Source: Chitinophaga pinensis (lineage in GTDB: Bacteria > Bacteroidota > Bacteroidia > 2-12-FULL-35-15). From it: a stretch of DNA of 64,000 nucleotides. Where the stretch lies: assembly GCA_945885475.1 (NCBI GenBank), contig CAMCYR010000009.1, positions 16,062 to 80,061 of the forward strand, written 5' to 3'. The position numbers and the translations under genes were made by a program. Positions 1,596 through 55,859 of the stretch are shown here, in pieces (position 1 is the first letter of the stretch; every line of letters starts with the position of its first letter). Under the pieces are notes generated by a model, which worked only from the letters and a program-made list of their open reading frames with translations, searched no databases and was not told where the DNA came from.

Positions 1596-3835
1596 GAGGC
1601 ACTAAGGGTTTCAAAGGGTAAACGAAAATCACAACCTGCTTTATATTCGCTGCAACCATAAGACGTTTTTCCTTTTATAATATTTCCTTTTTTGCACTTC
1701 GGACAAATGCTCTGCTGCGTTTCAGCAACAGCCGCCTTTTTAGTTTTGGGTGCTTTTATTTGTACTTCTTCGAATTCTACATTAAAAGAATCCGTCAATT
1801 TTAAAATACCATCTTTCTTTACACCTCCAGCTGTACAACCTTTTATCACTGCCGTCCTTTTCTTTTCTAAAAGCAATTTTATTTGTGCATCACTTAATTT
1901 TTTTCCCATCAGTTCAAAAGGGATTTTCATGTCGCAGCCATTTTTATAATTGCTGCAACCGAAAGCGGTTTTGCCTTTCAACATTGTCCCCGAATTACAT
2001 TTCGGACAAACTGCTTTATCATCTTTTTCAACAACAGGTGCATGGCTAGCAATAGTGATACGCTGCGAACTTTCATTACGAACCTGTATAACCAAATCGC
2101 TTACCATCTGTTTCATTTCAGCTAAAAAAGCTTCCGCCTGATATTCTCCTTTTTCTATCTGACGTAATTTAAATTCCCAGTTACCGGTCATTTCAGCCGA
2201 CTTCAACAACTCGTTATTAATCACACGGATCAATTCCATTCCTGTGATCGTAGGAACGAGATTTTTCCGCTCGCGCTTCACATAATTTCTCCGGAACAAT
2301 GTTTCGATTATTGCCGCGCGCGTTGATGGCCGACCAATTCCATTGTCCTTCATCAACTCACGCACTTCTTCATCATCAATCTGCTTACCGGCCGTTTCCA
2401 TTGCACGCAACAATGTTGCTTCAGTATATGCCTTGGGAGCACTTGTTTTTCCTTCTGATAAAAACGCTTCATGAGAACCCGTTTCACCCGTTTCGAAAGC
2501 AGGTAACAATTGAATTTCCTCTTTCTCATCTTCATCAATCACCTCTTTATTATAAACAATCCGCCAGCCGGGATCTAAAATCTGTTTTCCAGTTGCCTTA
2601 AATTCGATTTCTTTTACTGCGCCTAAAACAGTTGTATTTGAAACTTCACAATCCGGATAAAATACAGCCAGAAAACGTTTTGAAATTGTATCGAATACTA
2701 ATGCTTCATTGCCCACTAAGCCTTGGGCTTTCATATCGGTAGGAATGATCGCGTGGTGATCTGTTACTTTTTTATCGTCAAAAACTTTCGTTGATTTCCG
2801 AATCTCACTTTCTAACAACGGTTTTACAAGTGCTTGATAATTGACCATGTTTTTTAAAACACCTGGAATCTTCGCATACATATCATTCGGTAGATACGTT
2901 GTATCTACCCGCGGATAGGTTACCAATTTTTTCTCATATAGATTTTGAATAATCTTCAATGTATCTTCAGCCGAATACCCAAAACGCTTGTTGCACTCAA
3001 CCTGCAGAGACGTAAGATCAAACAAACGCGGCGATGATTCTTTTCCTTTTTTTGTTTCAACGGTTGTAATTGTGAATTGCTCTTCTTTTATAGAAGAAAG
3101 AATGTCTTCGGCTTTTTGTTTTTCGTTCCCCTGAAATCTTTCTACTTGTGCATTAAAAACAACATCACGGTATTTTGTTTTCAATTCAAAAAAAACGGCT
3201 GATTTAAATGCGTTTATTTCCAGCTGCCTGTTAACAATCATTGCAAGCGTGGGAGTTTGCACACGCCCAATGGAAAGTACTTGTTTTCCATTTCCATATT
3301 TTATTGTAAACAAACGTGTGGCGTTCATTCCTAAAAGCCAATCTGCCGCAGCTCGGGAATAACCTGCAAAATAAAGACTTTCGTAATCTTTACCATCTTT
3401 CAGCTTCGTAAATCCTTCACGGATAGCTTCCTCTGTCAAGGATGAAATCCACAAACGTTTTAATGGTTTTTTACAGTTTGCTTTTGAAAAGATCCAACGC
3501 TGAATCAATTCTCCTTCCTGCCCAGCATCACCACAATTTATAACTTCTGATGCGTTTTCAAAAAGGGAAGCAATCGTATTGAATTGCTTTTCGATGCCTT
3601 TATCATTTTTAACTTTTATTCCGAATTTTTGTGGAAGAATAGGCAGCATATTCAAATTCCATTGGCGATAGGCAGAATCATATTCGTGCGGTTCTTTCAA
3701 TTCGCATAAATGCCCGAAACTCCATGTTACCTGATAGCCATTTCCTTCATAATAGCCATCTTTGCGCTGGTTAGCGCCCAAAATCTCAGCTATTTCTCTT
3801 GCTACACTCGGTTTCTCTGCAATACACACCTTCAT
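1592..3835 (-). CDS. topB: DNA topoisomerase III (type IA) with C-terminal C4 zinc-ribbon repeats
   Basis: 747-aa ORF; N-terminal Toprim 'MKVCIAEKPSVAREIAEILG...WSFGHL'; two C-terminal 'CPKC...GCxxYKxGC' zinc ribbons. Confidence 0.9.
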   Translation of the reverse strand: MKVCIAEKPSVAREIAEILGANQRKDGYYEGNGYQVTWSFGHLCELKEPHEYDSAYRQWNLNMLPILPQKFGIKVKNDKGIEKQFNTIASLFENASEVINCGDAGQEGELIQRWIFSKANCKKPLKRLWISSLTEEAIREGFTKLKDGKDYESLYFAGYSRAAADWLLGMNATRLFTIKYGNGKQVLSIGRVQTPTLAMIVNRQLEINAFKSAVFFELKTKYRDVVFNAQVERFQGNEKQKAEDILSSIKEEQFTITTVETKKGKESSPRLFDLTSLQVECNKRFGYSAEDTLKIIQNLYEKKLVTYPRVDTTYLPNDMYAKIPGVLKNMVNYQALVKPLLESEIRKSTKVFDDKKVTDHHAIIPTDMKAQGLVGNEALVFDTISKRFLAVFYPDCEVSNTTVLGAVKEIEFKATGKQILDPGWRIVYNKEVIDEDEKEEIQLLPAFETGETGSHEAFLSEGKTSAPKAYTEATLLRAMETAGKQIDDEEVRELMKDNGIGRPSTRAAIIETLFRRNYVKRERKNLVPTITGMELIRVINNELLKSAEMTGNWEFKLRQIEKGEYQAEAFLAEMKQMVSDLVIQVRNESSQRITIASHAPVVEKDDKAVCPKCNSGTMLKGKTAFGCSNYKNGCDMKIPFELMGKKLSDAQIKLLLEKKRTAVIKGCTAGGVKKDGILKLTDSFNVEFEEVQIKAPKTKKAAVAETQQSICPKCKKGNIIKGKTSYGCSEYKAGCDFRLPFETLSAS

Positions 3836-4029
3836 GATACCTTACCGCTGCATCCAATCCTTTAAAAAAAAGTGGGAACCAGGGATTTTTTTATTTCTTC
3901 AAAAATAGCAACTGAACGAGTTTTATGCTGAAAATGATGTAACGTTTTATCAACAACTCTTTTGGTTTAAGATTTGTTATGCTATTTTTACATCTATAAA
4001 CAACAACTAATTTAACACGTAAAATCATT

Positions 4030-23073: not shown

Positions 23074-26000
23074 TTGAACAAAATGCAACTGAAACTGAAA
23101 TTATTTTTTGCTTTACTTACTGTTGTGACTTTTTCTGCAACTGCACAAAATTTTGCTTGGGCAAAAGCGATGGTTGGAACTGGGACAACGGATGAAGGTT
23201 CACAATCGGTTGCCATTGACGCTGCAGGCAATGTATACACTACAGGACAATTCTTCGGAACAGTTGATTTTGATCCGGGCGCAAGTACCTTTAATTTGAC
23301 TTCTACTGGTTTGGAAGATATTTTCATCTCGAAGCTGGATGCTTCCGGGAATTTTTTATGGGCTAAAAAAATTGGGGGAACTGGTACTGATGTTGGCTGG
23401 AAAATTGCTCTTGATGCAAGCTCAAATGTAGTTGTATCTGGTTATTTCAGATACACAGCTGATTTTGACCCGGGTTCGGCTGTTTATACTTTATCACAAG
23501 TTGGAACAGCTGCTTATGCTGATATTTTTGTGCTTAAACTTGATACAAATGGGAATTTTGTTTGGGTAAAACAATTTGGGGCATCATCCGTTGATGATGA
23601 TGCATATGGTTTATATATCGACAATTTAAGTAATATATATATAACAGGTTACTTCTGGGGAACAATAGATTTTGACCCAGGAGCGGGAATAGCCAATTTA
23701 ACACCTACTGGAAATGCTGATATCTATATTTTAAAATTGGATGCTTCGGGAAGTTTTGTGTGGGCAAAAAAAATGGGCGGAACCCTATTAGATGAAGGAA
23801 AAGGCATTTATGTGGATGGTTTAGGCAATGTATTCACCGTTGGTGTTTTTAGAGGAACAGTAGATTTTGATCCGGGTTCAGGTACTGCAAATCTAATATC
23901 GGCAGGCAGTGATGATATTTTTATTTCGAAGCTCGACGCTTCAGGAAATTTTAACTGGGCAAAATCAATCGGTTCTACCGGAATTGATTTCGCGTCTTCT
24001 ATTTCTGTGGATGCTTCGGGAAATATATTTATATCCGGTTATTTTAACGGTACAGTAGATTTTGATCCCGGCTCAGGAATTTCAAATTTGACATCCGCAG
24101 GTATTGAAGATATTTTTGTTTGTAAACTTGATGCCACCGGAAATTATAGTTGGGCAAAACGAATTGGAAGTACTTCAACTGATAAAGCAGTCGCTTCAAT
24201 TGTTGACGCATCCGGAAACATTCAAATAACTGGTTCTTATTCAGGAACCGTAGATTTCGATCCTGGCGCAACAACAACAAATCTCAGCTCTGCAGGTCTA
24301 ACAGATATTTTCGTATGCACGCTTGATGCTTCCGGTAATTTCCTTAGAGCAAAAACAATAGGTGGTACAGGAAATGACGCTGGAAATTCAATTGCAGTGT
24401 CTAGTTCAGGAAGTAGTTATATTTCTGGAGATTACAGCGGAACAGTAGATTTTGATCCAAGTGCAAGTACCTTTAACTTAAGTTCAGGTGGTGGTAAGGA
24501 TATTTTTGTAATGAAATTTTTAGCACCCTGTAACATTACAAACTCGAGTTCCCAAACGAATCTAACTTGTAATGGAATATGTACTGGATCAGCTACAATG
24601 ATTCCTAGTGGCGGAACATCTCCTTACACCTACTCATGGGCACCTTCAGGAGGTTCAGCAGCAACGGCAAATTCATTATGTGCAGGAAGTTATACCTGTA
24701 CCGTTACCGACAATGTCGGCTGTACGTCAACCAGAACGTATATCCTTACACAGCCGACTGCAATAAGTGTTGGTGCGTCTTTGCAATCAAACGTAATTTG
24801 TAATGGGGGAAACAATGGTGCAGCGAGTGTAAATGCAAGCGGAGGAACGGGAACATTAACTTATAATTGGACACCTGGAAATCCAACAGGCGATGGAACA
24901 GCCAGTGTTTCTGGTTTAACTGCCGGAACGTGGACGTGCACAGTAACGGATGCTAATGGCTGCAGTGGCTCTCGCACATTTACAATCACGCAACCACCAG
25001 CAATTGCTGTAAGCATTGCTTCACAAACAAATACAACATGTAATGGTGGTACGAATGGGGCTGCCAGTGTTACAGCTTCTGGGGGTGTAGGAATTTTGGC
25101 ATACGACTGGATGCCAGGAAACCCAACGGGAGATGGCACCAATAGCATTTCAGGGATATTCGCCAATACGTGGACTTGCTATGTAAGCGATGAAAATGGT
25201 TGTACTGCTTCACAAGCAATCACAATTACTCAGCCACCTGCAATTAGCGTTCTTACTTCATCTATCTCTCCCCCATCTTGCAATGGTGGAAATAATGGAT
25301 CCGCTTCCGTATCTGCATCTGGAGGAACAGGAAGTTTATCATACAACTGGACACCAGGAAACCCAACGGGTGATGGAACAACCATTGTTTCGGGTCTAAC
25401 TGCAGGATCTTGGACCTGCACTGCAACAGACGGAAGTGGGTGTACAGGAGCAAGAACAATAAATCTAACACAACCAACTGCAATTTCAGTTGCTGCTGTT
25501 TCCCAGACAAATGTTTCTTGTAACGGAGGTAGCAATGGATCAGCAAGTGCTTCGGCTTCGGGAGGTACAGGTACTTTATCTTTCAACTGGACGCCCTATG
25601 GAGGAACAGCTTCAACGGCAACCGCATTAACTGCCGGGACCTATACGTGTACCGTTACCGATGCAAATCTGTGTTCAGCATCCAGAACATTTATAATCAC
25701 GCAACCTACCGCGATCGTTGTGAATGCCGTTTCACAAACAAACGTTTCCTGCAATGCCGGAAATAATGGCGCTGCAACGATATCCGCTTCTGGAGGAACA
25801 GGTGCATATACATACAATTGGACGCCATTCGGAGGAACGGGAATAACGGCTTCAGGTTTAATTGCAGGAACATATACCTGCACCGTTACCGATGCAAATG
25901 CATGTTCGGCGAGTAGAATATTTACGATCACGCAACCAACAGCGATTGTTGTAAATGCAGTTTCTCAAACAAACGTTTCCTGCAATGCAGGAAATAATGG

Positions 26001-29000
26001 CGCTGCAACGATAGCTGCCTCAGGCGGAACAGGGGCATTCACCTATAATTGGACGCCAGGAAATCCTACAGGCGATGGAACTGTTGGTGTTTCTGGACTA
26101 ACTGCAGGATCGTGGACCTGCACGGTTACGGATGCAAATGCATGTTCTGCTTCACGCATTATTACAATCACTCAACCTACTCCTATTTCTGTTGGAATTT
26201 CTTCCCAAACAAATGTTTCTTGTAACGGAGGAAGTAATGGCGCTGCTTCCATATTCGCTTCAGGTGGTACTGGCGCACTCACTTATAACTGGACTCCAGG
26301 AAATCCAACGGGAGATGGCACAGCAAGTGTTTCGGGATTAACTGTAGGATCGTGGACCTGCACTGTAACGGATGCAAATGGATGTAATTCCACACAAATA
26401 TTCACGATTACTCAACCAACAGTAATTAATATTTCTGCAACAGCACAAAGCAATGTATCTTGTAACGGCGGAAACAATGGAACGATTACAGTAAACGCAA
26501 CTGGCGGAACAGGTGCTTTCACTTATAACTGGACGCCATCCGGAGGAACGGGAATTACAGCTACTGGTTTAATTGCAGGAACATATACCTGCACCGTTAC
26601 CGATGCAAATCTTTGTACAGCCTCAAGATCATTTACGATCACGCAGCCAACAGCTATTGTTGTAAATGCAGTTTCACAAACAAACGTTTCCTGCAATGCA
26701 GGGAATAATGGCGCTGCAACGATATCTGCTTCTGGCGGAACAGGTGCATTCACCTATAATTGGACGCCAGGAAATCCTTCAGGCGATGGAACAGTCAGTG
26801 TTTCGGGATTAACTGCCGGTTCATGGACCTGCACGGTTACCGATGCAAATGCATGTTCTGCTTCACGCATTATTACAATCACAGAGCCTACTGCTATTTC
26901 AGTAGTAGCTGTTTCCCAAACAAATGTTTCTTGTAACGGAGGAAGTAACGGTGCTGCAGCTGTTTCTGCTTCAGGCGGAACAGGTGCATATACTTACAAT
27001 TGGACGCCAGGAAATCCTACAGGAGACGGAACAGCAAGTGTTACTGGACTAAGTGCTGGATCGTGGACCTGCACGGTTACCGATGCAAATGGTTGTGCAG
27101 CATCCAGAACATTCACAATCACGCAACCATCAGTTATTGTTGTGAATGCCGTTTCACAAACAAACGTTTCCTGTAATGCAGGAAGCAATGGCGCTGCAAC
27201 GATATCTGCTTCAGGTGGAACAGGGGCATTCACATACAATTGGACGCCATTCGGAGGAACGGGAATTACGGCTTCAGGTTTAATTGCAGGAACGTATACT
27301 TGTACCGTTACCGATGCAAATGCATGTTCGGCGAGTAGAACATTTACGATCACACAACCAACTGCTATTGTTGTGAATACAGTTTCACAAACAAACGTTT
27401 CCTGCAATGCAGGAAGTAATGGCGCTGCAACGATATCTGCCTCGGGCGGAACAGGGGCATTCACCTATAATTGGACGCCAGGAAATCCTACAGGCGATGG
27501 AACTGTTAGTGTTTCGGGACTTACTGCAGGTTCATGGACTTGCACGGTGACAGATGCAAATGGATGTTCTGCTTCACGCATTATTTCAATCACAGAACCT
27601 ACTCCTATTGCTGTTGTTGCTTTTTCCCAAACAAATGTTTCTTGTAATGCAGGAAATAATGGCGCTGCAACGATATCAGCTTCTGGAGGAACAGGCGCAC
27701 TCACTTATAATTGGACTCCAGGAAATCCAACGGGAGATGGAACAGCAAGTGTTACTGGATTAACTGCCGGCTCATGGACCTGCACGGTTACTGATGCAAA
27801 TGCATGTTCTGCTTCACGCATTATTACAATCACAGAACCTACTGCTATCTCCGTTGCTGCTGTTTCCCAAACAAATGTTTCGTGTAACGGAGGAAGCAAT
27901 GGATCAGCTACTGCATCTGCTGCAGGAGGAACGGGTACTTTATCTTTCAACTGGACGCCATACGGGGGATCTGCTTCATCGGCAACCGGATTAACTGCAG
28001 GAACTTACACCTGCACCGTTACCGATGCAAATGCTTGTTTGGCAAGTAGAACATTTACGATCACAGAACCAACTGCAATTTCAGTTCTGTCTGCTTCCCA
28101 AACAAATGTTTCCTGCAATTCCGGGAACAATGCAGCGGCAACGATAGCTGCTTCAGGCGGAACAGGTGCTTACACATACAACTGGACGCCATTCGGAGGA
28201 ACGGGAATTTCAGCTTCAGGTTTAATTGCAGGAACATACACCTGCACTGTTACTGATGTAAATCTTTGTTCATCATCACTTACATTTTCTATAACAGAGC
28301 CAGCAGCAATTTCGGTAACGATAGTTTCTCAAACAAACGTTTCCTGCAATGCAGGAAATAATGGCGCTGCAACGATATCTGCTGTTGGAGGAACAGGTGC
28401 ATTTACTTACAATTGGACACCAGGAAATCCTACCGGAGATGGAACAGCAAGTGTTTCTGAACTAAGCGCAGGGGCTTTTACCTGCACTGTTACAGATGAA
28501 AATGGGTGTTCGGCATTCCGAATTATAACTATCACAGAACCTACTCCTATTTCTGTTGGAGTTTCTTCTCAAACAAATGTTTCTTGTAACGGAGGAAGTA
28601 ATGGTTCAGCTTCGGTATTCGCTTCAGGTGGTACTGGTAGTATTTCCTTCAACTGGCTTCCCTTTGGAGGCAATTCAGCATTCACAACGGGATTATCCGC
28701 AGGAACTTATTCTTGTAATATTTCGGATGCAAATGGCTGTTCAGCAATTCAACTGTTTACTATTTTAGAACCAACAGTAATTATAGTTGCTCCCGTTTCC
28801 CAAACCAATATCTCTTGTAATGGAGGCAATAACGGAGCTGCAGCGGTTTCTGCTTCGGGAGGAACAGGTGTTTTATTATTTAATTGGGCTCCTTCTGGCG
28901 GTTCTGCCCCAGCAATAACAGGGCTTACGGCCGACACGTATACCTGTACCGTTTCTGATGAGAATGGATGCAGCGCAACACAAACTTTTATCATTACTGA

Positions 29001-30405
29001 ACCTTCGCAAATAATAGTTTCTTCTTCTTCACAAAACAATGTATCGTGTAATGGAGGAAGCAATGGTGATGCGAGTGCAAGTGCAACAGGTGGCACAGGA
29101 TTGCTCAGCTACAGCTGGACTCCCTTTGGAGGTTCAACATCATCCGCAACAGGATTAAGTGCTGGAATTTATACTGTTACAGCCACGGATGAAAATGGTT
29201 GTAGCTCTTCACTCCAATTCGACATTTCAGAACCTACCACAATTGTTGTGAACACTGTTTCGCAAACAAATAATTTGTGTAATGGTGGAAATAATGGTAA
29301 TGCTGCTATTTCGGTTATTGGAGGAATTGCAGGATACACTTACGATTGGACGCCCGGAAATCCGACAGGTGATGCAAGCAATTCTATCAGTAATTTAACA
29401 GCAGGAATCTGGAATTGCTCTGTAACAGATGCGAATGGATGTGTTACCAACCATACCGTTTCAATTACAGAACCTGCAGCGATAATTATAAATCAATCTA
29501 ACATTATTTGTGCGGGTGCTTCTATTACTGTAGGAGTAAATACATATTCCAGCTCAGGAGTTTACACCGATGTATTAATTGCAGCGAATGGTTGCGATAG
29601 TACTGTAATTACTAATTTAACAGTGAATCCCGCACTATCAGCATCACAAACCATTGTTCGTTGCGCAGGTGAATCAATCACAGTTGGAGTAAATACGTAT
29701 TCAACGTCAGGAGTTTATACCGATGTATTAAATGCAGTGAATGGTTGCGATAGTACTGTAACAACGAATTTAACTGTGAATTCTCCTATTTCAGGATCTC
29801 AAACAATTATTCGCTGTGCAGGTGAATCCATTACGGTTGGATTAAATACCTATTCCATCTCAGGAGTTTACACCGATGTATTAACTGCAGCGAATGGGTG
29901 CGATAGTACCGTAACAACTAATTTAACGGTGAAACCTTCCATAAACATTGCTACTTCTCTTTCAGGAACAACAATCACTGCAATAGCAAATCCAGCGACT
30001 TATCAATGGATAGATTGCAATAATAGTAATGTGATAATTGCTGGTGCAACTAATCAATCTTTTGTTTCAACAATGAATGGTAGCTATGCGGTTATTGTTA
30101 CACAAAATGGATGCAGTGATACGAGTGCATGCGTGAACATTACAAATACAGGAATAAATGGATCAATTCAGAACAGTGAATTATTAATTTATCCAAATCC
30201 AACGAACGAAAAAGTAATTATCGAACTTGGAAATTTGATCGGACAACATTTAAAAATAATGAATGCTATTGGTCAGATTGTTTATGCTGCTGAAATAAAA
30301 AATACAAAAATAGAAATCGATCTTTCTGATTTTGCGAACGGAATATATACAATTCAGGTGCAAACAGCAAAGGGTATCGTTCTGAAAAAATTGGTAAAGA
30401 ATTAA
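23074..30405 (+). CDS. Giant T9SS cargo protein: ~9 SBBP beta-propeller repeats + ~21 SprB repeats + 3 Cys modules + type-A CTD
   Basis: 2443 aa; N-terminal repeats 'GxDxxxxIAxDxxGNxYxTGxFxGTxDFDPG...DIFIxKLDASGNFxWAK'; SprB repeat array; C-terminal 'LIYPNPTNEKVIIELGNL...GIYTIQVQTAKG' CTD. Confidence 0.85.
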   Translation: MNKMQLKLKLFFALLTVVTFSATAQNFAWAKAMVGTGTTDEGSQSVAIDAAGNVYTTGQFFGTVDFDPGASTFNLTSTGLEDIFISKLDASGNFLWAKKIGGTGTDVGWKIALDASSNVVVSGYFRYTADFDPGSAVYTLSQVGTAAYADIFVLKLDTNGNFVWVKQFGASSVDDDAYGLYIDNLSNIYITGYFWGTIDFDPGAGIANLTPTGNADIYILKLDASGSFVWAKKMGGTLLDEGKGIYVDGLGNVFTVGVFRGTVDFDPGSGTANLISAGSDDIFISKLDASGNFNWAKSIGSTGIDFASSISVDASGNIFISGYFNGTVDFDPGSGISNLTSAGIEDIFVCKLDATGNYSWAKRIGSTSTDKAVASIVDASGNIQITGSYSGTVDFDPGATTTNLSSAGLTDIFVCTLDASGNFLRAKTIGGTGNDAGNSIAVSSSGSSYISGDYSGTVDFDPSASTFNLSSGGGKDIFVMKFLAPCNITNSSSQTNLTCNGICTGSATMIPSGGTSPYTYSWAPSGGSAATANSLCAGSYTCTVTDNVGCTSTRTYILTQPTAISVGASLQSNVICNGGNNGAASVNASGGTGTLTYNWTPGNPTGDGTASVSGLTAGTWTCTVTDANGCSGSRTFTITQPPAIAVSIASQTNTTCNGGTNGAASVTASGGVGILAYDWMPGNPTGDGTNSISGIFANTWTCYVSDENGCTASQAITITQPPAISVLTSSISPPSCNGGNNGSASVSASGGTGSLSYNWTPGNPTGDGTTIVSGLTAGSWTCTATDGSGCTGARTINLTQPTAISVAAVSQTNVSCNGGSNGSASASASGGTGTLSFNWTPYGGTASTATALTAGTYTCTVTDANLCSASRTFIITQPTAIVVNAVSQTNVSCNAGNNGAATISASGGTGAYTYNWTPFGGTGITASGLIAGTYTCTVTDANACSASRIFTITQPTAIVVNAVSQTNVSCNAGNNGAATIAASGGTGAFTYNWTPGNPTGDGTVGVSGLTAGSWTCTVTDANACSASRIITITQPTPISVGISSQTNVSCNGGSNGAASIFASGGTGALTYNWTPGNPTGDGTASVSGLTVGSWTCTVTDANGCNSTQIFTITQPTVINISATAQSNVSCNGGNNGTITVNATGGTGAFTYNWTPSGGTGITATGLIAGTYTCTVTDANLCTASRSFTITQPTAIVVNAVSQTNVSCNAGNNGAATISASGGTGAFTYNWTPGNPSGDGTVSVSGLTAGSWTCTVTDANACSASRIITITEPTAISVVAVSQTNVSCNGGSNGAAAVSASGGTGAYTYNWTPGNPTGDGTASVTGLSAGSWTCTVTDANGCAASRTFTITQPSVIVVNAVSQTNVSCNAGSNGAATISASGGTGAFTYNWTPFGGTGITASGLIAGTYTCTVTDANACSASRTFTITQPTAIVVNTVSQTNVSCNAGSNGAATISASGGTGAFTYNWTPGNPTGDGTVSVSGLTAGSWTCTVTDANGCSASRIISITEPTPIAVVAFSQTNVSCNAGNNGAATISASGGTGALTYNWTPGNPTGDGTASVTGLTAGSWTCTVTDANACSASRIITITEPTAISVAAVSQTNVSCNGGSNGSATASAAGGTGTLSFNWTPYGGSASSATGLTAGTYTCTVTDANACLASRTFTITEPTAISVLSASQTNVSCNSGNNAAATIAASGGTGAYTYNWTPFGGTGISASGLIAGTYTCTVTDVNLCSSSLTFSITEPAAISVTIVSQTNVSCNAGNNGAATISAVGGTGAFTYNWTPGNPTGDGTASVSELSAGAFTCTVTDENGCSAFRIITITEPTPISVGVSSQTNVSCNGGSNGSASVFASGGTGSISFNWLPFGGNSAFTTGLSAGTYSCNISDANGCSAIQLFTILEPTVIIVAPVSQTNISCNGGNNGAAAVSASGGTGVLLFNWAPSGGSAPAITGLTADTYTCTVSDENGCSATQTFIITEPSQIIVSSSSQNNVSCNGGSNGDASASATGGTGLLSYSWTPFGGSTSSATGLSAGIYTVTATDENGCSSSLQFDISEPTTIVVNTVSQTNNLCNGGNNGNAAISVIGGIAGYTYDWTPGNPTGDASNSISNLTAGIWNCSVTDANGCVTNHTVSITEPAAIIINQSNIICAGASITVGVNTYSSSGVYTDVLIAANGCDSTVITNLTVNPALSASQTIVRCAGESITVGVNTYSTSGVYTDVLNAVNGCDSTVTTNLTVNSPISGSQTIIRCAGESITVGLNTYSISGVYTDVLTAANGCDSTVTTNLTVKPSINIATSLSGTTITAIANPATYQWIDCNNSNVIIAGATNQSFVSTMNGSYAVIVTQNGCSDTSACVNITNTGINGSIQNSELLIYPNPTNEKVIIELGNLIGQHLKIMNAIGQIVYAAEIKNTKIEIDLSDFANGIYTIQVQTAKGIVLKKLVKN
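24527..29490 (+). repeat. In-frame tandem array of ~21 x ~240-bp SprB-repeat coding units, many near-identical at the nucleotide level, with higher-order ~1.4-kb periodicity
   Basis: Direct reading: e.g. units beginning ~25696 and ~27120 align with roughly 90 % or more identity by eye (not computed) across >450 nt; recurring 4-unit pattern (TPYGG / TPFGG / GNPTGDGTV / GNPTGDGTAS variants). Confidence 0.85.
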
Positions 30406-49444: not shown

Positions 49445-49897
49445 ATGTCAAAAAAGCACACAGAAACCGTTGATTCGAAATTAAAAACTGCTTGGCAGAT
49501 CATTAGCCGCATGTACAATGCGGAAGCGGCACAACATAGCGCAAGTATAGCAATAGGTCACTTCTTGCTAAACATTGATAGTAATGAAGGTGCTTACGCT
49601 TCCGAAATCGCACCTAGACTAGGCATGGAAAGTACATCTCTTTCAAGAATCACGAAAGCACTGGAAGATGAAAAGTTAATCATCCGAAAAGCAGACAAAG
49701 ATGACAAACGAAAAGTAAAGATCCTTTTAACACAAAAAGGAAAAGAAAATAAAGAGCTTGCTAAAAAAATTGTACGTAATTTTAATACGGAGATAGAAAA
49801 AAAGATCGGCAAAAATAAAATAGATGAATTTTTCAAAACCGTAGACGATATTATTTTAATAGCAGAAGAAAAAAATAAACTTTTGAAACTTGGTTAA
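49445..49897 (+). CDS. MarR-family transcriptional regulator
   Basis: 150 aa; winged-helix region 'ASEIAPRLGMESTSLSRITKALEDEKLIIRKADKDDKRKVKILLTQKG'. Confidence 0.85.
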   Translation: MSKKHTETVDSKLKTAWQIISRMYNAEAAQHSASIAIGHFLLNIDSNEGAYASEIAPRLGMESTSLSRITKALEDEKLIIRKADKDDKRKVKILLTQKGKENKELAKKIVRNFNTEIEKKIGKNKIDEFFKTVDDIILIAEEKNKLLKLG

Positions 49898-49908
49898 CTC
49901 TTAATACT

Positions 49909-52284
49909 ATGAACAGATCTATAAAAAAAGTAGCCATTCTTGGTTCGGGTGTAATGGGAAGTCGGATTGCTTGCCATTTCGCAAATATTGGTGTGGAAGT
50001 GATTCTACTGGATATTGTGCCGAAGGATGCAGCTGCCGATAAAAAATCACGGAATAAAATTGTGGATGATGCTTTAGTATTTGCTTTAAAGTCTAACCCC
50101 TCTCCTATCTATCGCAAAGCATTTGCGAAACGTATAACAACAGGTAATTTTGATGACAATATGAAAGATATTGCAACCTGCGACTGGATCATTGAGGTGG
50201 TGATCGAACGTTTAGATATCAAAAAACAAGTCTTTGAAAATGTAGAAAAATACCGTAAACCGGGAACATTGATTACATCCAATACCTCAGGTATTCCCAT
50301 TAACCATATGAATGAAGGAAGAAGTGAAGATTTTCAAAAACATTTCTGCGGCTCACACTTTTTTAACCCTCCCCGATATTTGCGCTTATTAGAAATCATA
50401 CCAACTCCAAAAACATCACCCGAGGTAGTTGACTTTTTAATGAACTATGGTGAATTATATTTAGGAAAAACAACTGTATTGTGTAAAGACACGCCCGCAT
50501 TTATCGCTAACAGGATTGGTGTTTACGGAATCATGAGTTTATTTCACACTGTTGAAAAAATGGGATTAACTATTGACGAGGTCGATAAACTAACCGGTCC
50601 CGTATTGGGTCGGCCAAAATCAGCGACATTTAGAACTTGTGATGTTGTTGGATTAGACACATTGATGCATGTAGCAAATGGTGTTTCTGCAAGCTGTCCG
50701 GATGACGAAGCAATTGAGGCCTTCCAGATTCCCTCTTATGTTTCAAAAATGGTGGAGAATAAATGGCTTGGAAGTAAAACTGAACAAGGATTTTTCAAAA
50801 AAGTAAAAGGCGCAAATGGAAAATCAGAGATTCATTCATTAGACCTGAAAACACTCGAATATAAACTATCAGCAAAAGCGAAATTTGCGACACTGGAAGC
50901 GACAAAAAAAATAGACAACTTGCGTGATCGAATGAAAGTACTACTGGCAGGAACAGATAAAGCCGGTGAATTTTATCGCACTTCTTTTTATGGACTTTTT
51001 GCTTATGTGAGCAATCGTATACCTGAAATAACAGATGAGCTTTATAAAATTGATGCGGCAATGAATGCCGGTTTCGCATGGGAACTCGGACCGTTTGAAG
51101 CATGGGATTCACTAGGTGTTGCGGAAGCCGTAAAAGCAATGGAAACCGCAGGAAATAAACCTGCACAGTGGATATATGATATGCTTTCTTCAGGAGCATC
51201 TACTTTCTATAAAGCTGAAAATGGCAGCAAAAAATACTATGACATTCCTTCTAAATCGTATAAAGTTATTCCGGGTACAGAAGCGTTTATCATTTTAGAT
51301 ACTATCCGCGCAAACAAAACGGTTTGGAAAAATAAGGGTGCAACACTTACGGATATCGGCGATGGAATTGTGAATCTCGAGTGGAATACAAAAATGAATT
51401 CCATCGGAGCAGAAGTAATCGAGGGTATCAACAAATCAATTGAGATTGCTGAAAAAGATTTCCGAGGTTTGGTTATTTCTAACGAAGGTGCTAATTTTTC
51501 TGCAGGTGCAAATGTAGGAATGATCTTTATGATGGCTGTTGAACAAGAGTATGATGAATTGAATTTTGCAATTAAAACATTTCAAAACAGCATGATGCGT
51601 GTTCGCTATTCTTCCATTCCGGTTGTTGTAGCTCCACACAACATGGCTTTGGGCGGTGCTTGTGAAATGAGTATGCACTCCGACAGAGTTGTTGCTCATT
51701 CGGAAACATACATGGGACTGGTAGAATTCGGAGTAGGCTTAATTCCGGGTGGTGGCGGAACAAAAGAATTCGCAGTCCGCTTATCAGATGAATTGCAAGA
51801 AGGTGATATCGAATTAAATAATTTCCGTGATCGCTTTTTAACTATCGGACAAGCAAAAGTTGGAACATCAGCTTACGAGGCATTTGATCTAGGATATTTA
51901 AGAAAAGGAAAAGATGTAGTCGTGATTTCCCGCAACAGAGTCTTATCTGAAGCAAAATTAAATTGTATAGAAATCGCTGAAGCAGGATATACCAAACCTG
52001 CTGCTCGCAAAGATATACGTGTACTTGGAAAACAAGCATTGGGATTAGCTTATTTAGGTGCAAATTCAATGATGTCTGGACATTATATAAGCGAGCACGA
52101 TGTAAAAATTTCACAGAAATTAGCTTACGTATTATGTGGTGGTGATTTATCAAGTCCAACTTTAGTAAGCGAACAATACTTATTGGATTTAGAACGTGAA
52201 GCATTTTTATCTCTTTGTGGAGAAAGAAAAACCTTAGAACGTTTACAAAGTATAATTACAGGTGGTAAAATCTTACGTAATTAG
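49909..52284 (+). CDS. fadB: Bifunctional 3-hydroxyacyl-CoA dehydrogenase / enoyl-CoA hydratase (FadB-like, dehydrogenase domain N-terminal)
   Basis: 791 aa; 'KKVAILGSGVMGSRIA' NAD-binding; C-terminal crotonase-fold region. Confidence 0.9.
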   Translation: MNRSIKKVAILGSGVMGSRIACHFANIGVEVILLDIVPKDAAADKKSRNKIVDDALVFALKSNPSPIYRKAFAKRITTGNFDDNMKDIATCDWIIEVVIERLDIKKQVFENVEKYRKPGTLITSNTSGIPINHMNEGRSEDFQKHFCGSHFFNPPRYLRLLEIIPTPKTSPEVVDFLMNYGELYLGKTTVLCKDTPAFIANRIGVYGIMSLFHTVEKMGLTIDEVDKLTGPVLGRPKSATFRTCDVVGLDTLMHVANGVSASCPDDEAIEAFQIPSYVSKMVENKWLGSKTEQGFFKKVKGANGKSEIHSLDLKTLEYKLSAKAKFATLEATKKIDNLRDRMKVLLAGTDKAGEFYRTSFYGLFAYVSNRIPEITDELYKIDAAMNAGFAWELGPFEAWDSLGVAEAVKAMETAGNKPAQWIYDMLSSGASTFYKAENGSKKYYDIPSKSYKVIPGTEAFIILDTIRANKTVWKNKGATLTDIGDGIVNLEWNTKMNSIGAEVIEGINKSIEIAEKDFRGLVISNEGANFSAGANVGMIFMMAVEQEYDELNFAIKTFQNSMMRVRYSSIPVVVAPHNMALGGACEMSMHSDRVVAHSETYMGLVEFGVGLIPGGGGTKEFAVRLSDELQEGDIELNNFRDRFLTIGQAKVGTSAYEAFDLGYLRKGKDVVVISRNRVLSEAKLNCIEIAEAGYTKPAARKDIRVLGKQALGLAYLGANSMMSGHYISEHDVKISQKLAYVLCGGDLSSPTLVSEQYLLDLEREAFLSLCGERKTLERLQSIITGGKILRN

Positions 52285-52759
52285 ATTTGAGACTGGAGAT
52301 ATGAGATTTTAGATAGGTAGAACAAAATAATAAACATTAAAGTAATTATGCATAATTTAAAAGAGTTAAAAATTTGGCACATGGTGATGGACTTGTCTGT
52401 TGAAGTTTATAAAGCAACTTCTAAATTTCCCAAAGAAGAGATTTATGGTCTGACTTCACAAATAAAAAGATCTGCCATTTCAATACCATCAAATATTTCA
52501 GAAGGTGCTGGTCGAAATTCCAATAAAGAGTTCATTCATTTCCTTGGAATTGCGAATGGTTCATCTTATGAGTTGCAAACACAATTAATCATTTCAAATA
52601 AACTAAATCTAATTTCAGATGAAACACTAGCGTCTCTCTTGAAACCGATTGAGGAAATACCAAAAATGCCATATACATTTCAAAACACTTTACAAAAGCA
52701 ATATTTAGAAAAGGCCTGAGAACAAATCTAATATCTCAGGTCTAACATCTCAAATCTAA
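52281..52759. mobile_element. 479-bp cassette carrying a four-helix-bundle gene, bounded by perfect 12-bp inverted repeats TTAGATTTGAGA (52281-52292) / TCTCAAATCTAA (52748-52759), inserted between fadB and fadA
   Basis: Inverted repeats read directly; left repeat overlaps fadB stop codon; additional 'caaatctaata' direct repeats at the right end. Confidence 0.35.
52348..52719 (+). CDS. Four-helix-bundle protein (TIGR02436; formerly '23S rRNA intervening-sequence protein')
   Basis: 123 aa; 'KIWHMVMDLSVEVYKATSKFPKEEIYGLTSQIKRSAISIPSNISEGAGR...FLGIANGSSYELQTQLIIS' family signature. Confidence 0.85.
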   Translation: MHNLKELKIWHMVMDLSVEVYKATSKFPKEEIYGLTSQIKRSAISIPSNISEGAGRNSNKEFIHFLGIANGSSYELQTQLIISNKLNLISDETLASLLKPIEEIPKMPYTFQNTLQKQYLEKA

Positions 52760-52765
52760 TAAAAT

Positions 52766-53941
52766 ATGAACGCATATATTGTAGCTGGTTTTCGAACCGC
52801 AGTTGGAAAAGCAACAAGAGGTGGATTTAGATTCACACGTCCTGATGATCTCGCAGCAGATGTAATAAAACATTTGATGGCAAGTGTTCCAAACATTGCA
52901 CACGATCAGGTGGACGATTTGATTGTTGGAAACGCAATGCCTGAAGCAGAACAAGGTTTAAACATGGCAAGATTTATTTCTCTAATGGCATTCAATACAG
53001 ACAAAGTTTCCGGAATGACAGTGAACCGTTATTGCGCATCCGGTTTAGAAACTATTGCTATTGCTGCGGCAAAAATAAATGCTGGTATGGCCGATTGTAT
53101 CGTTGCCGGGGGAGCCGAAAGTATGAGTTTAATTCCAATGGGTGGATGGCGAATCGTGCCGCATGCAGGAGTTGCACTTGCACATCCCGATCATTATTGG
53201 GGAATGGGCTTAACTGCAGAAGCCGTTGCGAATGAATATAAAATCAGCCGTGAGGATCAAGATGCCTTTGCACTTAACTCTCACCTGAAAGCAATGAAAG
53301 CAATCAAAGAAGGGAAATTTAAAGATGAGATCGTTCCAATAAAAATTTCTGAAACCTATGTTGATGAAAATGAAAAGAAAAAAATACGCGACTTTATTGT
53401 TGATACAGATGAAGGTCCGCGTGCAGACACAACGCTTGAAGCACTCGGAAAACTAAAACCGGTGTTTGATGCAAATGGAAGTGTAACAGCTGGTAATTCT
53501 TCACAAACAAGTGATGGAGCAGCATTTGTAATGATTGTCAGCGAGAAATTTTTAAAAGAAAATAATTTAAAACCAATTGCACGCATGGTTAGTTTTGCTG
53601 CAGCCGGAGTTCCTCCTCGCATCATGGGAATAGGTCCGGTTGCCGCTATTCCAAAAGCATTGAAATTAGCTGGAATGAATTTAGGCCAAATTGATTTAAT
53701 TGAATTGAATGAAGCCTTTGCTTCCCAATCATTAGCAGTTTGCAGAGAATTAAACATCAACCAGGATATTGTAAATGTAAATGGGGGAGCGATTTCACTC
53801 GGACATCCACTAGGTTGTTCCGGAGCGAAATTGTCGGTTCAATTATTCAGTGAATTAAAAAGAAGAAAACAAAAATATGGAATAGTTAGTATGTGTGTAG
53901 GAACCGGACAAGGTGCTGCAGGCATATTCGAAATGCTCTAA
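52766..53941 (+). CDS. fadA: Acetyl-CoA C-acyltransferase (3-ketoacyl-CoA thiolase)
   Basis: 391 aa; 'NRYCASGLE' active-site Cys region, C-terminal 'GCSGAKL...MCVGTGQGAA'. Confidence 0.9.
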   Translation: MNAYIVAGFRTAVGKATRGGFRFTRPDDLAADVIKHLMASVPNIAHDQVDDLIVGNAMPEAEQGLNMARFISLMAFNTDKVSGMTVNRYCASGLETIAIAAAKINAGMADCIVAGGAESMSLIPMGGWRIVPHAGVALAHPDHYWGMGLTAEAVANEYKISREDQDAFALNSHLKAMKAIKEGKFKDEIVPIKISETYVDENEKKKIRDFIVDTDEGPRADTTLEALGKLKPVFDANGSVTAGNSSQTSDGAAFVMIVSEKFLKENNLKPIARMVSFAAAGVPPRIMGIGPVAAIPKALKLAGMNLGQIDLIELNEAFASQSLAVCRELNINQDIVNVNGGAISLGHPLGCSGAKLSVQLFSELKRRKQKYGIVSMCVGTGQGAAGIFEML

Positions 53942-53968: not shown

Positions 53969-55744
53969 ATGACAACATTAAAAGGAGGAGAATTCCTAAT
54001 CAAAGAAACAGAAGCAAAAGATGTTTTTATTCCTGAAGAATGGAATGAAGAACAATTAATGATTGCAGAAACCTGTCATGATTTTTTAGCTCAAAATGTT
54101 TGGGATAAATTAGATCGTATTGATGCACAAGAAGAAGGACTAATGGTTGACTTGCTAAACAAAGCAGGAGAATTAGGATTGTTGGGGATTTCTGTTCCGG
54201 AAGAATTTGGTGGATTCGGTAAAGATTTCACGACTTCTATGCTCGCAACTGAAATATTAGGTGCAGGTCATTCATTTGCCGTTGCTATCTCTGCCCATAC
54301 CGGAATCGGAACATTGCCGATTTTATATTATGGAACAGCTGAACAAAAAGCAAAATATATTCCCAAATTATCAAGTGGTGAATGGAAAGCCGCTTATTGC
54401 TTAACAGAACCAAGTTCAGGTTCTGATGCAAACTCTGGCAAAACAAATGCAAAATTAACAGAAGACGGGAAACATTACATTCTGAACGGTCAAAAAATGT
54501 GGATTACCAATGGCGGATTTGCAGACGTGTATACGGTATTTGCTAAAATTGATTCTGATGAAAACCTTTCAGCATTCATCGTAGAAAAATCATTTGGTGG
54601 AATTTCTTTAAACCCTGAGGAACATAAAATGGGAATCAAGGGAAGTTCTACTCGTCAGGTATTTTTCAATGACTGTAAAGTTCCTGTAGAAAATTTATTA
54701 TCAGACAGACAAAATGGATTTAAAATCGCTGTAAATATTTTAAATCTTGGTCGTATCAAATTGGCGGGAGCTGCAATTGGAGGAAGTAAAGAAACGACAA
54801 CCCTCTCAATAAAATATGCGAACGATCGTCAACAGTTCGGAAGATCAATTTCAAAATACGGTGCTATCCGTTACAAACTAGCTGAGCAGGCAATCAGAAT
54901 CTACGCGAGTGAATCGGCAATTTACAGAGCGAGTCAAAACGTTGAAGATGCTACCAAATCTTTAATTGCCGCTGGTATGGATGAAGCAAAAGCTAAATTA
55001 AAAGGTGTTGAACAATTTGCTGTTGAAGCTGCAATTGTAAAAGTACATGGCTCGGAAGTGTTGGATTACGTTGTTGATGAAGGTGTACAAATATACGGAG
55101 GAATGGGATACAGCGCGGAAGCGCCAATGGATAGAGCTTACCGTGATGCAAGGATCAACCGTATTTTTGAAGGAACAAATGAGATCAACCGAATGCTGAC
55201 AGTTGACATGATGTTAAAACGTGCAATGAAAGGCGAATTGGATTTAATGGGTCCTGCTCAGGCAGTTGCGGCTGAACTAATGGCCATTCCAGATTTTTCA
55301 GAAACAGAAACAACAACATTTTCTAACGAAAAGAAATACGTTGCCGGATTTAAAAAATCAGTCTTAATGGTTGCCGGTGCGGCAGTTCAAAAACTGATGA
55401 TGCAATTAGGAAAAGAACAAGAGATCTTAATGAACCTGGCAGACATGATCATAGAAACATATGTATCTGAATCATTGCAATTAAGAGTTGAAAAGCTTGT
55501 CGCTTTAAAAGGTGAAGCAGCGTGCAAAGAACAAATAGACATAATGCGCGTCTATATCAACGATGCTGCAGACAGAATACACAAATCAGGAAAAGAAGCG
55601 ATTAATAGCTTTGCCTCAGGTGATGAACAAAGAGCAATGTTAATGGGAATGAAACGGTTTACAAAAACGGAACCATTAAATACAACAGAAGCCAGAAGAA
55701 ACATTTCTGCAAAGTTGATTGCTGAAAATAAATATTGTTTTTAG
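53969..55744 (+). CDS. Acyl-CoA dehydrogenase (long, FadE-like)
   Basis: 591 aa; 'AYCLTEPSSGSDA', 'QIYGGMGYS' ACAD motifs. Confidence 0.9.
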   Translation: MTTLKGGEFLIKETEAKDVFIPEEWNEEQLMIAETCHDFLAQNVWDKLDRIDAQEEGLMVDLLNKAGELGLLGISVPEEFGGFGKDFTTSMLATEILGAGHSFAVAISAHTGIGTLPILYYGTAEQKAKYIPKLSSGEWKAAYCLTEPSSGSDANSGKTNAKLTEDGKHYILNGQKMWITNGGFADVYTVFAKIDSDENLSAFIVEKSFGGISLNPEEHKMGIKGSSTRQVFFNDCKVPVENLLSDRQNGFKIAVNILNLGRIKLAGAAIGGSKETTTLSIKYANDRQQFGRSISKYGAIRYKLAEQAIRIYASESAIYRASQNVEDATKSLIAAGMDEAKAKLKGVEQFAVEAAIVKVHGSEVLDYVVDEGVQIYGGMGYSAEAPMDRAYRDARINRIFEGTNEINRMLTVDMMLKRAMKGELDLMGPAQAVAAELMAIPDFSETETTTFSNEKKYVAGFKKSVLMVAGAAVQKLMMQLGKEQEILMNLADMIIETYVSESLQLRVEKLVALKGEAACKEQIDIMRVYINDAADRIHKSGKEAINSFASGDEQRAMLMGMKRFTKTEPLNTTEARRNISAKLIAENKYCF

Positions 55745-55859
55745 CTTTACTCAAGGGAAGCATAACAAAATCAAACCTATGGGAGACCATAGGTTTTTTT
55801 ATTCTTTCCTATTATCGGAAATAAAAATAAATCATAAAAAAAAGATTAATTTTGCAGAT

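Follow-up and report, generated by a model that had tools for sequence, protein, structure and literature searches.

A four-helix-bundle gene framed by inverted heptad arrays in the fadB-fadA spacer of Chitinophaga pinensis, and its likeness to the intervening sequences of 23S rRNA

We analysed a 64,000-nucleotide stretch of a Chitinophaga pinensis assembly (GCA_945885475.1, contig CAMCYR010000009.1, positions 16,062 to 80,061 of the forward strand), hereafter the window, in which a small gene encoding a four-helix-bundle (4HB) protein lies between the fatty-acid oxidation genes fadB and fadA. On either side the gene is framed by an arm of tandem 7-nucleotide units, the two arms being mutually inverted, and between them the arms span the fadB-fadA spacer, beginning at the stop codon of fadB and leaving 6 nt ahead of the fadA start. 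We refer to the gene and its arms as the cassette; this gene-plus-frame design matches that of the intervening sequence (IVS) in the 23S rRNA of Coxiella burnetii. Coordinates are those of the window unless a locus is named, and the features of the junction, some taken from the list of open reading frames (ORFs), are as follows.

49909..52284, + strand: fadB-type bifunctional 3-hydroxyacyl-CoA dehydrogenase / enoyl-CoA hydratase, the upstream host gene (ORF list, profile match)
52280..52292, + strand: left copy of the outer 13-bp perfect inverted repeat, ATTAGATTTGAGA
52281..52315, + strand: left arm, five tandem heptads (TTAGATT, TGAGACT, GGAGATA, TGAGATT, TTAGATA)
52316..52347, + strand: inner left spacer between arm and ATG, A-rich and unconserved (indels and low identity among orthologous loci)
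52348..52719, + strand: 4HB protein gene, 123 aa, PF05635 / TIGR02436, S23p / 23S rRNA IVS protein family with an Avd-like fold (hidden Markov models, AlphaFold2 model)
52725..52759, - strand: right arm, five tandem heptads in minus-strand reading (TTAGATT, TGAGATG, TTAGACC, TGAGATA, TTAGATT)
52748..52760, + strand: right copy of the outer 13-bp perfect inverted repeat, TCTCAAATCTAAT
52766..53941, + strand: fadA-type thiolase, the downstream host gene (ORF list, profile match)

A first-pass annotation of this DNA had reported a 12-mer, TTAGATTTGAGA, at 52281-52292 with an exact reverse complement at 52748-52759. The sequence bears this out, as it does the overlap with the fadB stop codon, a TAG at 52282-52284 that lies inside the left copy and within the first left heptad. 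The reported extent was too short: the perfect repeat, which includes the 12-mer, measures 13 bp and is merely the outer end of two 35-bp arms, each consisting of five in-phase heptads with the consensus T[T/G]AGA[T/C]N. The distance to fadA is likewise 6 nt rather than 7, counted from the end of the right arm (52759) to the ATG at 52766. Tandem Repeats Finder detected both arms, as period 14, and no other array of this heptad motif exists in the window. No target-site duplication is visible at the ends of the cassette, where the flanks read ...CGTA|A and T|AAAAT without a direct repeat.

The bare 12-mer has two matches in the window and is not significant alone, given that at least two matches with at most one mismatch occurred in 18 of 100 shuffles. 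The arms are a different matter. Their flank-to-flank inverted alignment scored z = 9.4, a value reached by 0 of 200 shuffles, and as RNA they form a duplex of 33 pairs with a predicted energy of -35.7 kcal/mol, compared with -11.7 ± 3.2 kcal/mol for shuffled sequences (z = -7.5). Mismatches in this duplex are spaced about every seventh nucleotide. The long-range stem is present in both the minimum free energy (MFE) and the centroid fold of the whole 521-nt region, where it encloses a loop of 409 nt that holds the 4HB gene. Chance is thereby excluded as the origin of the arms. We also considered TAGATTTG (52282-52289, in the first two heptads) as a promoter -7 box and dropped it, since a -33 TTTG is missing at the proper distance and the string is absent from the other heptad types. 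Its match to TAnnTTTG, the Bacteroidetes -7 box, is probably a coincidence.

The lone TIGR02436-type 4HB gene that had been placed between the repeats was recovered by profile searches. The protein matches PF05635 (E = 2.6e-39, 134.1 bits, cut-off 33.8), TIGR02436 (128.8 bits, cut-off 24) and NF008911 (141.9 bits, cut-off 137); it scores 20.6 bits against the Avd equivalog model NF033474, below the cut-off of 80. Among solved structures, it matches XCC0516 (PDB 2GSC; E = 9e-20, 38-39% identity). The AlphaFold2 model has four long helices (mean predicted local distance difference test score, pLDDT, 86.8), and Foldseek aligned it with template modelling (TM) scores of 0.75-0.86 to 2GSC, 0.74-0.84 to 2RLD (BT_0352) and 0.72-0.83 to Avd (4DWL chains, 8UB7_E), with one 8UB7 chain falling outside the overall range of 0.72-0.86. 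The family motif RxxxSxxxNxxE is present as R41, S45, N49 and E52; across 20 relatives, N49 and E52 do not vary, and conservation is at least 90% at R41 and S45. The motif has been given for PF05635 as GxxRxxxSxxxNxxE (PMC3936711), the leading G of which is absent from the window protein. The 2GSC and 2RLD entries contain five chains each and Avd is described as a pentamer (10.1101/2023.10.23.563531); judging from these homologues, the window protein would form a homopentameric ring.

We next compared the junction across relatives, as the first-pass annotation had proposed. A FadA scan of species-representative genomes gave 80 Bacteroidota loci, in 76 of which both fadB and fadA are visible. 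The spacer between the two genes is mostly 4-120 bp and gene-free, and a 4HB gene, or a fragment or remnant of one, is found in 22 of the 76. As most junctions are short and gene-free, these data support the view that the ancestral fadB-fadA junction had no cassette. A further 11 loci carry a 4HB gene downstream of fadA, in the spacer before the acyl-CoA dehydrogenase (ACAD) gene. The fadB stop codon is TAA or TGA in cassette-less relatives; in several carriers it is the TAG of the first heptad. The exact window protein was found in 17 metagenome contigs, always between fadB and fadA, and homologues with 81-83% identity occupy the same site.

The closest relatives present a range of spacer states; in the nearest of them, L011 to L017, FadA is 89-93% identical. 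Full cassettes are found at L014, L091 and L100, while L011 carries an internally deleted remnant with both arms retained. At L012 (3962-3993) and L013 (3822-3862), the fadB-fadA spacer is gene-free and holds a one-sided array of five ATACTT[G/A] heptads with no left partner. These heptads are the complement of an AAGTAT type rather than of the window's type, which suggests that an earlier, different cassette once sat in the same spacer. L015, L016 and L017 have short gene-less heptad hairpins. The one at L015 (3045-3130) shares TTAGATG/TTGGATG heptads with the arms of a 4HB cassette in the fadA-ACAD spacer of the same contig (L015:4317-4700), a match that fits a dependence of gene-less hairpins on a resident protein of matching specificity.

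Spacer content is also polymorphic within one population, as seen in very close contigs. L171 and L173 are ~97% identical in nucleotide sequence to L172 and encode the same fadB-fadA protein, and the three differ in the fadA-ACAD spacer. That of L172 is filled exactly from stop codon to start codon by a 443-bp 4HB cassette with AAGTAT-type arms (3408-3850), whereas L171 (4605-4728) and L173 (2812-2902) have a 124-bp spacer unrelated to it. Divergence beside the L172 cassette is not clearly raised, on a downstream flank of just 72 nt.

The window cassette itself is old. Compared with L091, whose protein is 91% identical, the synonymous divergence (dS) of the 4HB gene is 1.12, against 1.01 for fadA and 1.03 for fadB. 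As dS equals that of the neighbouring genes, the cassette has co-diverged vertically with them in this lineage rather than arrived recently. An ancient insertion with diverged flanks, which the first-pass annotation had held up against its own suggestion of mobility, is half borne out. Over the same comparison the dN/dS of the gene is 0.045, and at a dS of ~1.1 the arms are identical at 33 of 35 positions on the left and 34 of 35 on the right (96%). dS is saturated for L014 and L100 compared with the window. Across five orthologous loci, the AGA columns of the left arm and the TCT columns of the right arm are invariant, and other stem positions change without compensation. The 4HB gene and the arms are therefore under strong purifying selection, and the conserved feature of the arms is the phased AGA (left) and TCT (right), not position-by-position complementarity.

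To place the window cassette in its family, we surveyed 126 4HB genes, drawn from the 80 loci found with FadA and from 80 metagenome loci found with the window protein. Usable flanks were available for 122 genes, and in 93 of these the flanks are inverted at z > 3; in the non-redundant set, inverted flanks are significant in 79 of 108, with a median aligned stem of 31 bp. The arms are almost always tandem heptads of the general form NNAG[A/T]NN, with a unit that varies: T[TG]AGAT, TTAGTAT or TGAGTAT, CAAGAAN, TAGAATA and TGTACAN. Aligned on the AG, the family logo reads T(68%) [T/G/A] A(88%) G(93%) [A/T] [A/T] N, the phasing having somewhat inflated positions 3-4. Five is the most common number of units per arm (41 of 108 left arms overall; 15 of 24 left and 16 of 24 right arms in the window's clade). 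Of the 202 period-7 arrays in the 1.1 Mb of DNA retrieved, 133 lie within 200 bp of a 4HB match, a zone that makes up 8.2% of the bases; many of the others have no gene and sit in the same fad spacers.

In a neighbour-joining tree, heptad type goes with protein clade. The window's clade (identity at least 63%, heptads of the GAGAT type) is found in the fadB-fadA, fadA-ACAD, sdhA-sdhB and mraY-murD spacers; of two other large groups, one has AGTAT-type heptads and is mostly found at fadB-fadA, and the other has CAAGAA-type heptads and is mostly found at fadA-ACAD. One fadB-fadA sub-clade has an intact 4HB gene and a left arm but no detectable right arm (L119, L125, L133, L139, L063, L053, L123, L167 and L168). 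Where fadA is visible (L119, L123, L133, L167 and L168), the 4HB stop codon lies 5-14 nt from its start. Since this sub-clade keeps an intact gene, the gene can persist without the stem. Compound arrangements occur in some sdhA-sdhB spacers (L110:2856-3000, L111:2848-3000 and L099:2797-3000), which contain a left arm, a loop of ~75 nt, a right arm, the 4HB gene and a second right arm. Because either right arm could serve as partner of the left arm, the gene could fall inside or outside the loop, which would allow alternative structures. At L099 the left arm has 14 heptads and there is an extra mini-hairpin.

Like the window gene, which is in sense orientation on the same strand as fadB and fadA, 4HB genes of the metagenome loci nearly always run in the same direction as their neighbours: 76 of 79 share the strand of the upstream ORF, and 72 of 77 that of the downstream ORF. 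Their contexts are the intercistronic spacers of conserved operons: fadB-fadA, fadA-ACAD, sdhA-sdhB and mraY-murD. A search with the XCC0516 sequence extended this habit to Xanthomonas and Dyella (Xanthomonadales), where a sense-oriented 4HB gene lies between accB and accC. The accB-accC cassettes (L177/L179:2425-2872 and L181:2484-2930) are framed by inverted arrays of four heptads, GGGAATN / GAGAATC; the called start codon of L181 falls inside the left arm and its annotation is probably too long. The gene-plus-frame design thus spans at least two phyla, in Bacteroidota and Xanthomonadales. Other intercistronic cases have been published. A table places a 4HB gene between gmk and nadD in Flavobacterium columnare, and 18 PF05635 genes lie inside cas operons (PMC3936711). 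PF05635 genes have been reported as 'CRISPR-associated' from their position between cas genes (PMC3936711, PMC10910872); given the general intercistronic habit, this association may be incidental.

The remaining features of the host transcription unit in the window, fadB-fadA-ACAD, are these.

49445..49897, + strand: MarR-family regulator gene, directly upstream of fadB
53969..55744, + strand: ACAD gene, the last gene of the transcription unit
55773..55796, + strand: intrinsic-terminator-like hairpin with a T-run, 3' of the ACAD gene (terminator scan)

The MarR-fadB gene order is kept in relatives. The fadA-ACAD spacer of the window, the second cassette site in relatives, is empty at 27 bp. 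From fadB through ACAD and beyond, the scan gave no terminator-like site on the + strand other than 55773-55796; its remaining matches are on the - strand. Terminator and sigma-70 scans found no terminator or promoter signal at the cassette; the sigma-70 scan gave 23 matches against 20.8 in shuffles, with a model that is uninformative for Bacteroidota promoters. Rfam had no match in 51800-53200 at E <= 1.

The closest known counterpart is the 23S rRNA IVS with an S23p ORF, described in Leptospira, Coxiella burnetii and Brucella (Ralph & McClelland 1993; Warrier et al. 2016, PMC4990558). In C. burnetii, the IVS has a sense S23p ORF, a 28-bp terminal inverted-repeat stem that is cut by RNase III and three tandem GACAGAT heptads, the number of which varies among strains (PMC4990558). 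Both elements total ~430-480 nt and encode a PF05635 protein from an ORF that lies in the loop of a terminal-inverted-repeat stem (28 bp in Coxiella, ~33 pairs here), in sense with a strongly conserved host transcript and beside tandem heptads of the NAGAT type (T[T/G]AGA[T/C]N x5 here). They differ in location, the rRNA elements being found in helix 25 or 45 of 23S rRNA and the window cassette in the spacer between protein-coding genes. RNase III excision is established for the former and argued by analogy for the latter. The Coxiella ORF is decaying and apparently untranslated, in contrast to the purifying selection on the window ORF, and for the rRNA elements no mirror-image heptad arrays on both sides have been described as such.

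Avd, the accessory variability determinant of diversity-generating retroelements (DGRs; PDB 4DWL, 8UB7), shares the four-helix-bundle fold and offers a precedent for binding, in that all five protomers of the pentameric ring contact one imperfect RNA stem-loop, with flipped-out bases in the crevices between protomers (10.1101/2023.10.23.563531). The window protein is not itself a DGR component: this was ruled out by the NF033474 score below cut-off (sequence identity to Avd is 9-10%) and by the neighbours, which are MarR, fadB, fadA and ACAD, without a reverse transcriptase, template repeat or variable repeat in the vicinity. Its direct homologues XCC0516 of Xanthomonas campestris (2GSC) and BT_0352 of Bacteroides thetaiotaomicron (2RLD) are structural-genomics pentamers labelled 'S23 ribosomal protein family', to which no function or cis element has been assigned. 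The relatives of XCC0516 share the intercistronic placement, at accB-accC, and the frame of inverted heptad arrays; their heptads differ in being G-rich (GGGAATN), in line with host composition.

Intergenic tandem heptamers are known from the short tandemly repeated repetitive (STRR) sequences of cyanobacteria and the TAACTGA repeats of Beggiatoaceae, Cyanobacteria and some Bacteroidetes (MacGregor 2015, PMC4679880). These, too, consist of 7-nt units in short runs that frequently lie right before a start codon, and the phyla overlap. As described, however, they are mostly direct, one-sided arrays of another unit, and no PF05635 gene or inverted partner has been reported for them. Ring-shaped regulators that read spaced triplets in RNA include TRAP, which recognizes 11 G/UAG triplets, and HutP, which recognizes UAG every 7 nt. 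Periodic (U/G)AG repeats, in a number of the order of the subunit number, are common to these systems and the cassette, and HutP also shares the 7-nt spacing. In contrast, TRAP and HutP have unrelated folds and no complementary partner array, and binding in our case is a proposal. S23p-bearing rRNA IVSs, the TIGR02436 family and intergenic heptamer repeats were thus known separately. Our literature search, the coverage of which was incomplete, found no description that links them, nor one of the inverted heptad frame or of the intercistronic niche of PF05635 genes. What appears to be new is an IVS-type cassette that lives in mRNA operons with a defined cis element.

On the basis of these observations, we favour, with a probability of roughly 0.55, an IVS-type cassette that is co-transcribed with the operon and whose imperfect periodic stem is probably gripped by its own pentamer, cut by RNase III, or both. 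In the polycistronic RNA, the arms would pair to give a ~33-bp duplex, interrupted by a mismatch at roughly every seventh position, and this duplex would be the cis-acting site. Selection on the phased AGA motif points to recognition by a protein, and the encoded ring is the natural candidate, because heptad type tracks protein clade, five units are the mode and the solved homologues are pentamers. By analogy with Avd, the pentamer would probably hold the duplex with about one heptad per protomer. RNA is favoured over DNA as the working form by the strict sense orientation and by the fixed polarity, with the AG-rich arm 5' of the gene. The rRNA precedent and a duplex of ~33 bp, a length and stability compatible with an RNase III substrate, suggest cleavage by that enzyme, which may process the cassette out of the operon transcript as it does in rRNA. 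Over long times, cassettes are gained, swapped, reduced to gene-less hairpins and lost. Spread is more likely to proceed by recombination through the flanking genes than by transposition; these genes are very conserved, and such a route, if true, would account for which operons serve as hosts and for the clades tied to particular positions.

Several observations weigh against this interpretation. Among 79 non-redundant stems, G·U mismatches are not in excess over A·C mismatches (64 vs 86, p = 0.086), so the stems bear no signature of selection on the sense-strand RNA. Nor is there mirror-order correspondence of heptads between arms: across 46 elements, paired heptads share 5.44 identical positions against a null of 5.37 (Fisher p = 0.93). 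The arms are complementary because both are arrays of one motif, without covariation between paired heptads. Pairing could therefore be a by-product of two same-motif arrays, with DNA or single-stranded RNA as the functional form. About a quarter of relatives have no detectable right arm and an intact gene, which makes the stem dispensable to the gene, and the number of units per arm is not fixed at five, ranging over 3-7 or more. Protein binding and RNase III cutting are each argued from analogy, and Avd is a distant homologue, at 9-10% identity and with an NF033474 score of 20.6 bits against the cut-off of 80.

The likeliest of the rival explanations is a pure RNA-processing or stability hairpin, in which the double-stranded RNA is cut by RNase III or protects mRNA ends, the periodicity is a by-product of slippage and the protein ignores the arms. 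The stability of the duplex and its presence in both folds, the RNase III precedent of the rRNA IVS and the sense orientation would all be accounted for, and the strain-variable heptad copy number of Coxiella is what slippage predicts (PMC4990558). However, a hairpin of this kind would not be expected to keep the phased AG across phyla and across clades down to 40% protein identity, or to hold the AGA/TCT columns invariant while other stem positions change uncompensated; it also sits poorly with the missing G·U excess and with a heptad type that co-varies with protein clade. We regard it as possible though rather doubtful. The arrays could alternatively be operators, that is, double-stranded DNA sites at which the 4HB pentamer or another factor modulates transcription in the spacer, as a roadblock or a local fad regulator. 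Conservation that is sequence-specific rather than pair-specific and the symmetry of the transition mismatches would suit this model, and Avd reportedly binds DNA as well as RNA. Against it, the same type of cassette occurs in unrelated operons (fad, sdh, mraY-murD, accBC and rRNA), as a pathway regulator would not, the fad operon already has a MarR gene, and the strict polarity, with the AG-rich arm always 5' of the gene and the gene oriented like its host transcript, argues for RNA; we consider an operator improbable.

The first-pass annotation had likened the architecture to a miniature mobile or cassette-like element. As a miniature DNA transposon, similar to a miniature inverted-repeat transposable element (MITE), it would have 12-bp terminal inverted repeats (TIRs) recognized by a transposase acting in trans. 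The cassette half of that proposal holds, in that gene-free junctions, the use of four operon spacers by one protein clade and the polymorphism between ~97% identical contigs (L171/L173 vs L172) define a discrete, non-ancestral unit. Transposition would also explain the patchy presence and absence among relatives, gene-less hairpins that resemble non-autonomous derivatives and the heptad type shared by the L015 hairpin and its adjacent cassette. The TIR element fares less well. Transposase genes are absent from the 20-kb neighbourhoods of the cassette, the sole ORF of which is the PF05635 gene; there is no visible target-site duplication and no second copy of the flanks in the window; and all 17 contigs with the exact protein have it at the same site, the dS of its gene being equal to that of the neighbours. 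Its ends are arrays of 3-7 degenerate heptads rather than unique TIRs, the nearly constant sense orientation is not something a DNA transposon requires, and the L172 polymorphism replaces a whole spacer from stop to start instead of inserting into one. Viral contigs scanned with the window protein yielded no relatives, and so no evidence of a phage vector. A transposon is accordingly unlikely in our judgement. Least probable by far is that the repeats are partners in an attenuator or terminator hairpin, as the first-pass annotation had allowed, or a chance repeat. They do flank an intergenic region and the bare 12-mer count is unremarkable, but the loop spans 409 nt, no U-run follows the right arm (52759), where the terminator scan is empty, the only terminator lies after ACAD, and highly non-random arms recur in ~80 independent relatives; arm statistics, terminator scan and duplex energy together refute it.

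The IVS-type interpretation can be taken further, tentatively and at odds that we consider low. PF05635 proteins would then be sequence-specific ring-shaped RNA binders that read one heptad per protomer, and gene and arms a self-contained module that colonises rRNA and the intercistronic spacers of essential, highly conserved operons, in which the protein controls an RNase III-sensitive zipping and the host is held by addiction in cis. If true, loss of the gene with the arms kept would damage expression of the host operon. Such an arrangement would explain the purifying selection on the ORF, the constant sense orientation and the gene-less hairpins that share the heptad type of a nearby cassette, as well as the origin of rRNA IVSs and of the DGR protein Avd.

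Few small genes without an explanation are as common in Bacteroidota, Cyanobacteria and Proteobacteria as those of PF05635/TIGR02436, and 23S rRNA IVSs have been known to carry them, without explanation, since the early 1990s. The present data show that the gene is accompanied by a conserved cis element, which consists of inverted arrays of about five heptads of the NAGAT type, and that it usually resides between co-transcribed housekeeping genes, in the spacers of fad, sdh, mraY-murD and accBC. The rRNA element is then one instance of a general gene-plus-arms design. The results also suggest where the RNA-binding Avd subunit of DGRs came from. PF05635 genes within cas or other operons need not be functionally linked to them, as they appear to be general intercistronic lodgers.

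Elsewhere in the window, large tandem repeats occupy 25654-28604 (a unit of ~240 bp, also scored as 471 bp, in ~12 copies with 70% identity), and a 153-bp unit is present in 2.6 copies at 29533-29933; both presumably belong to a gene for a surface protein with repetitive domains.

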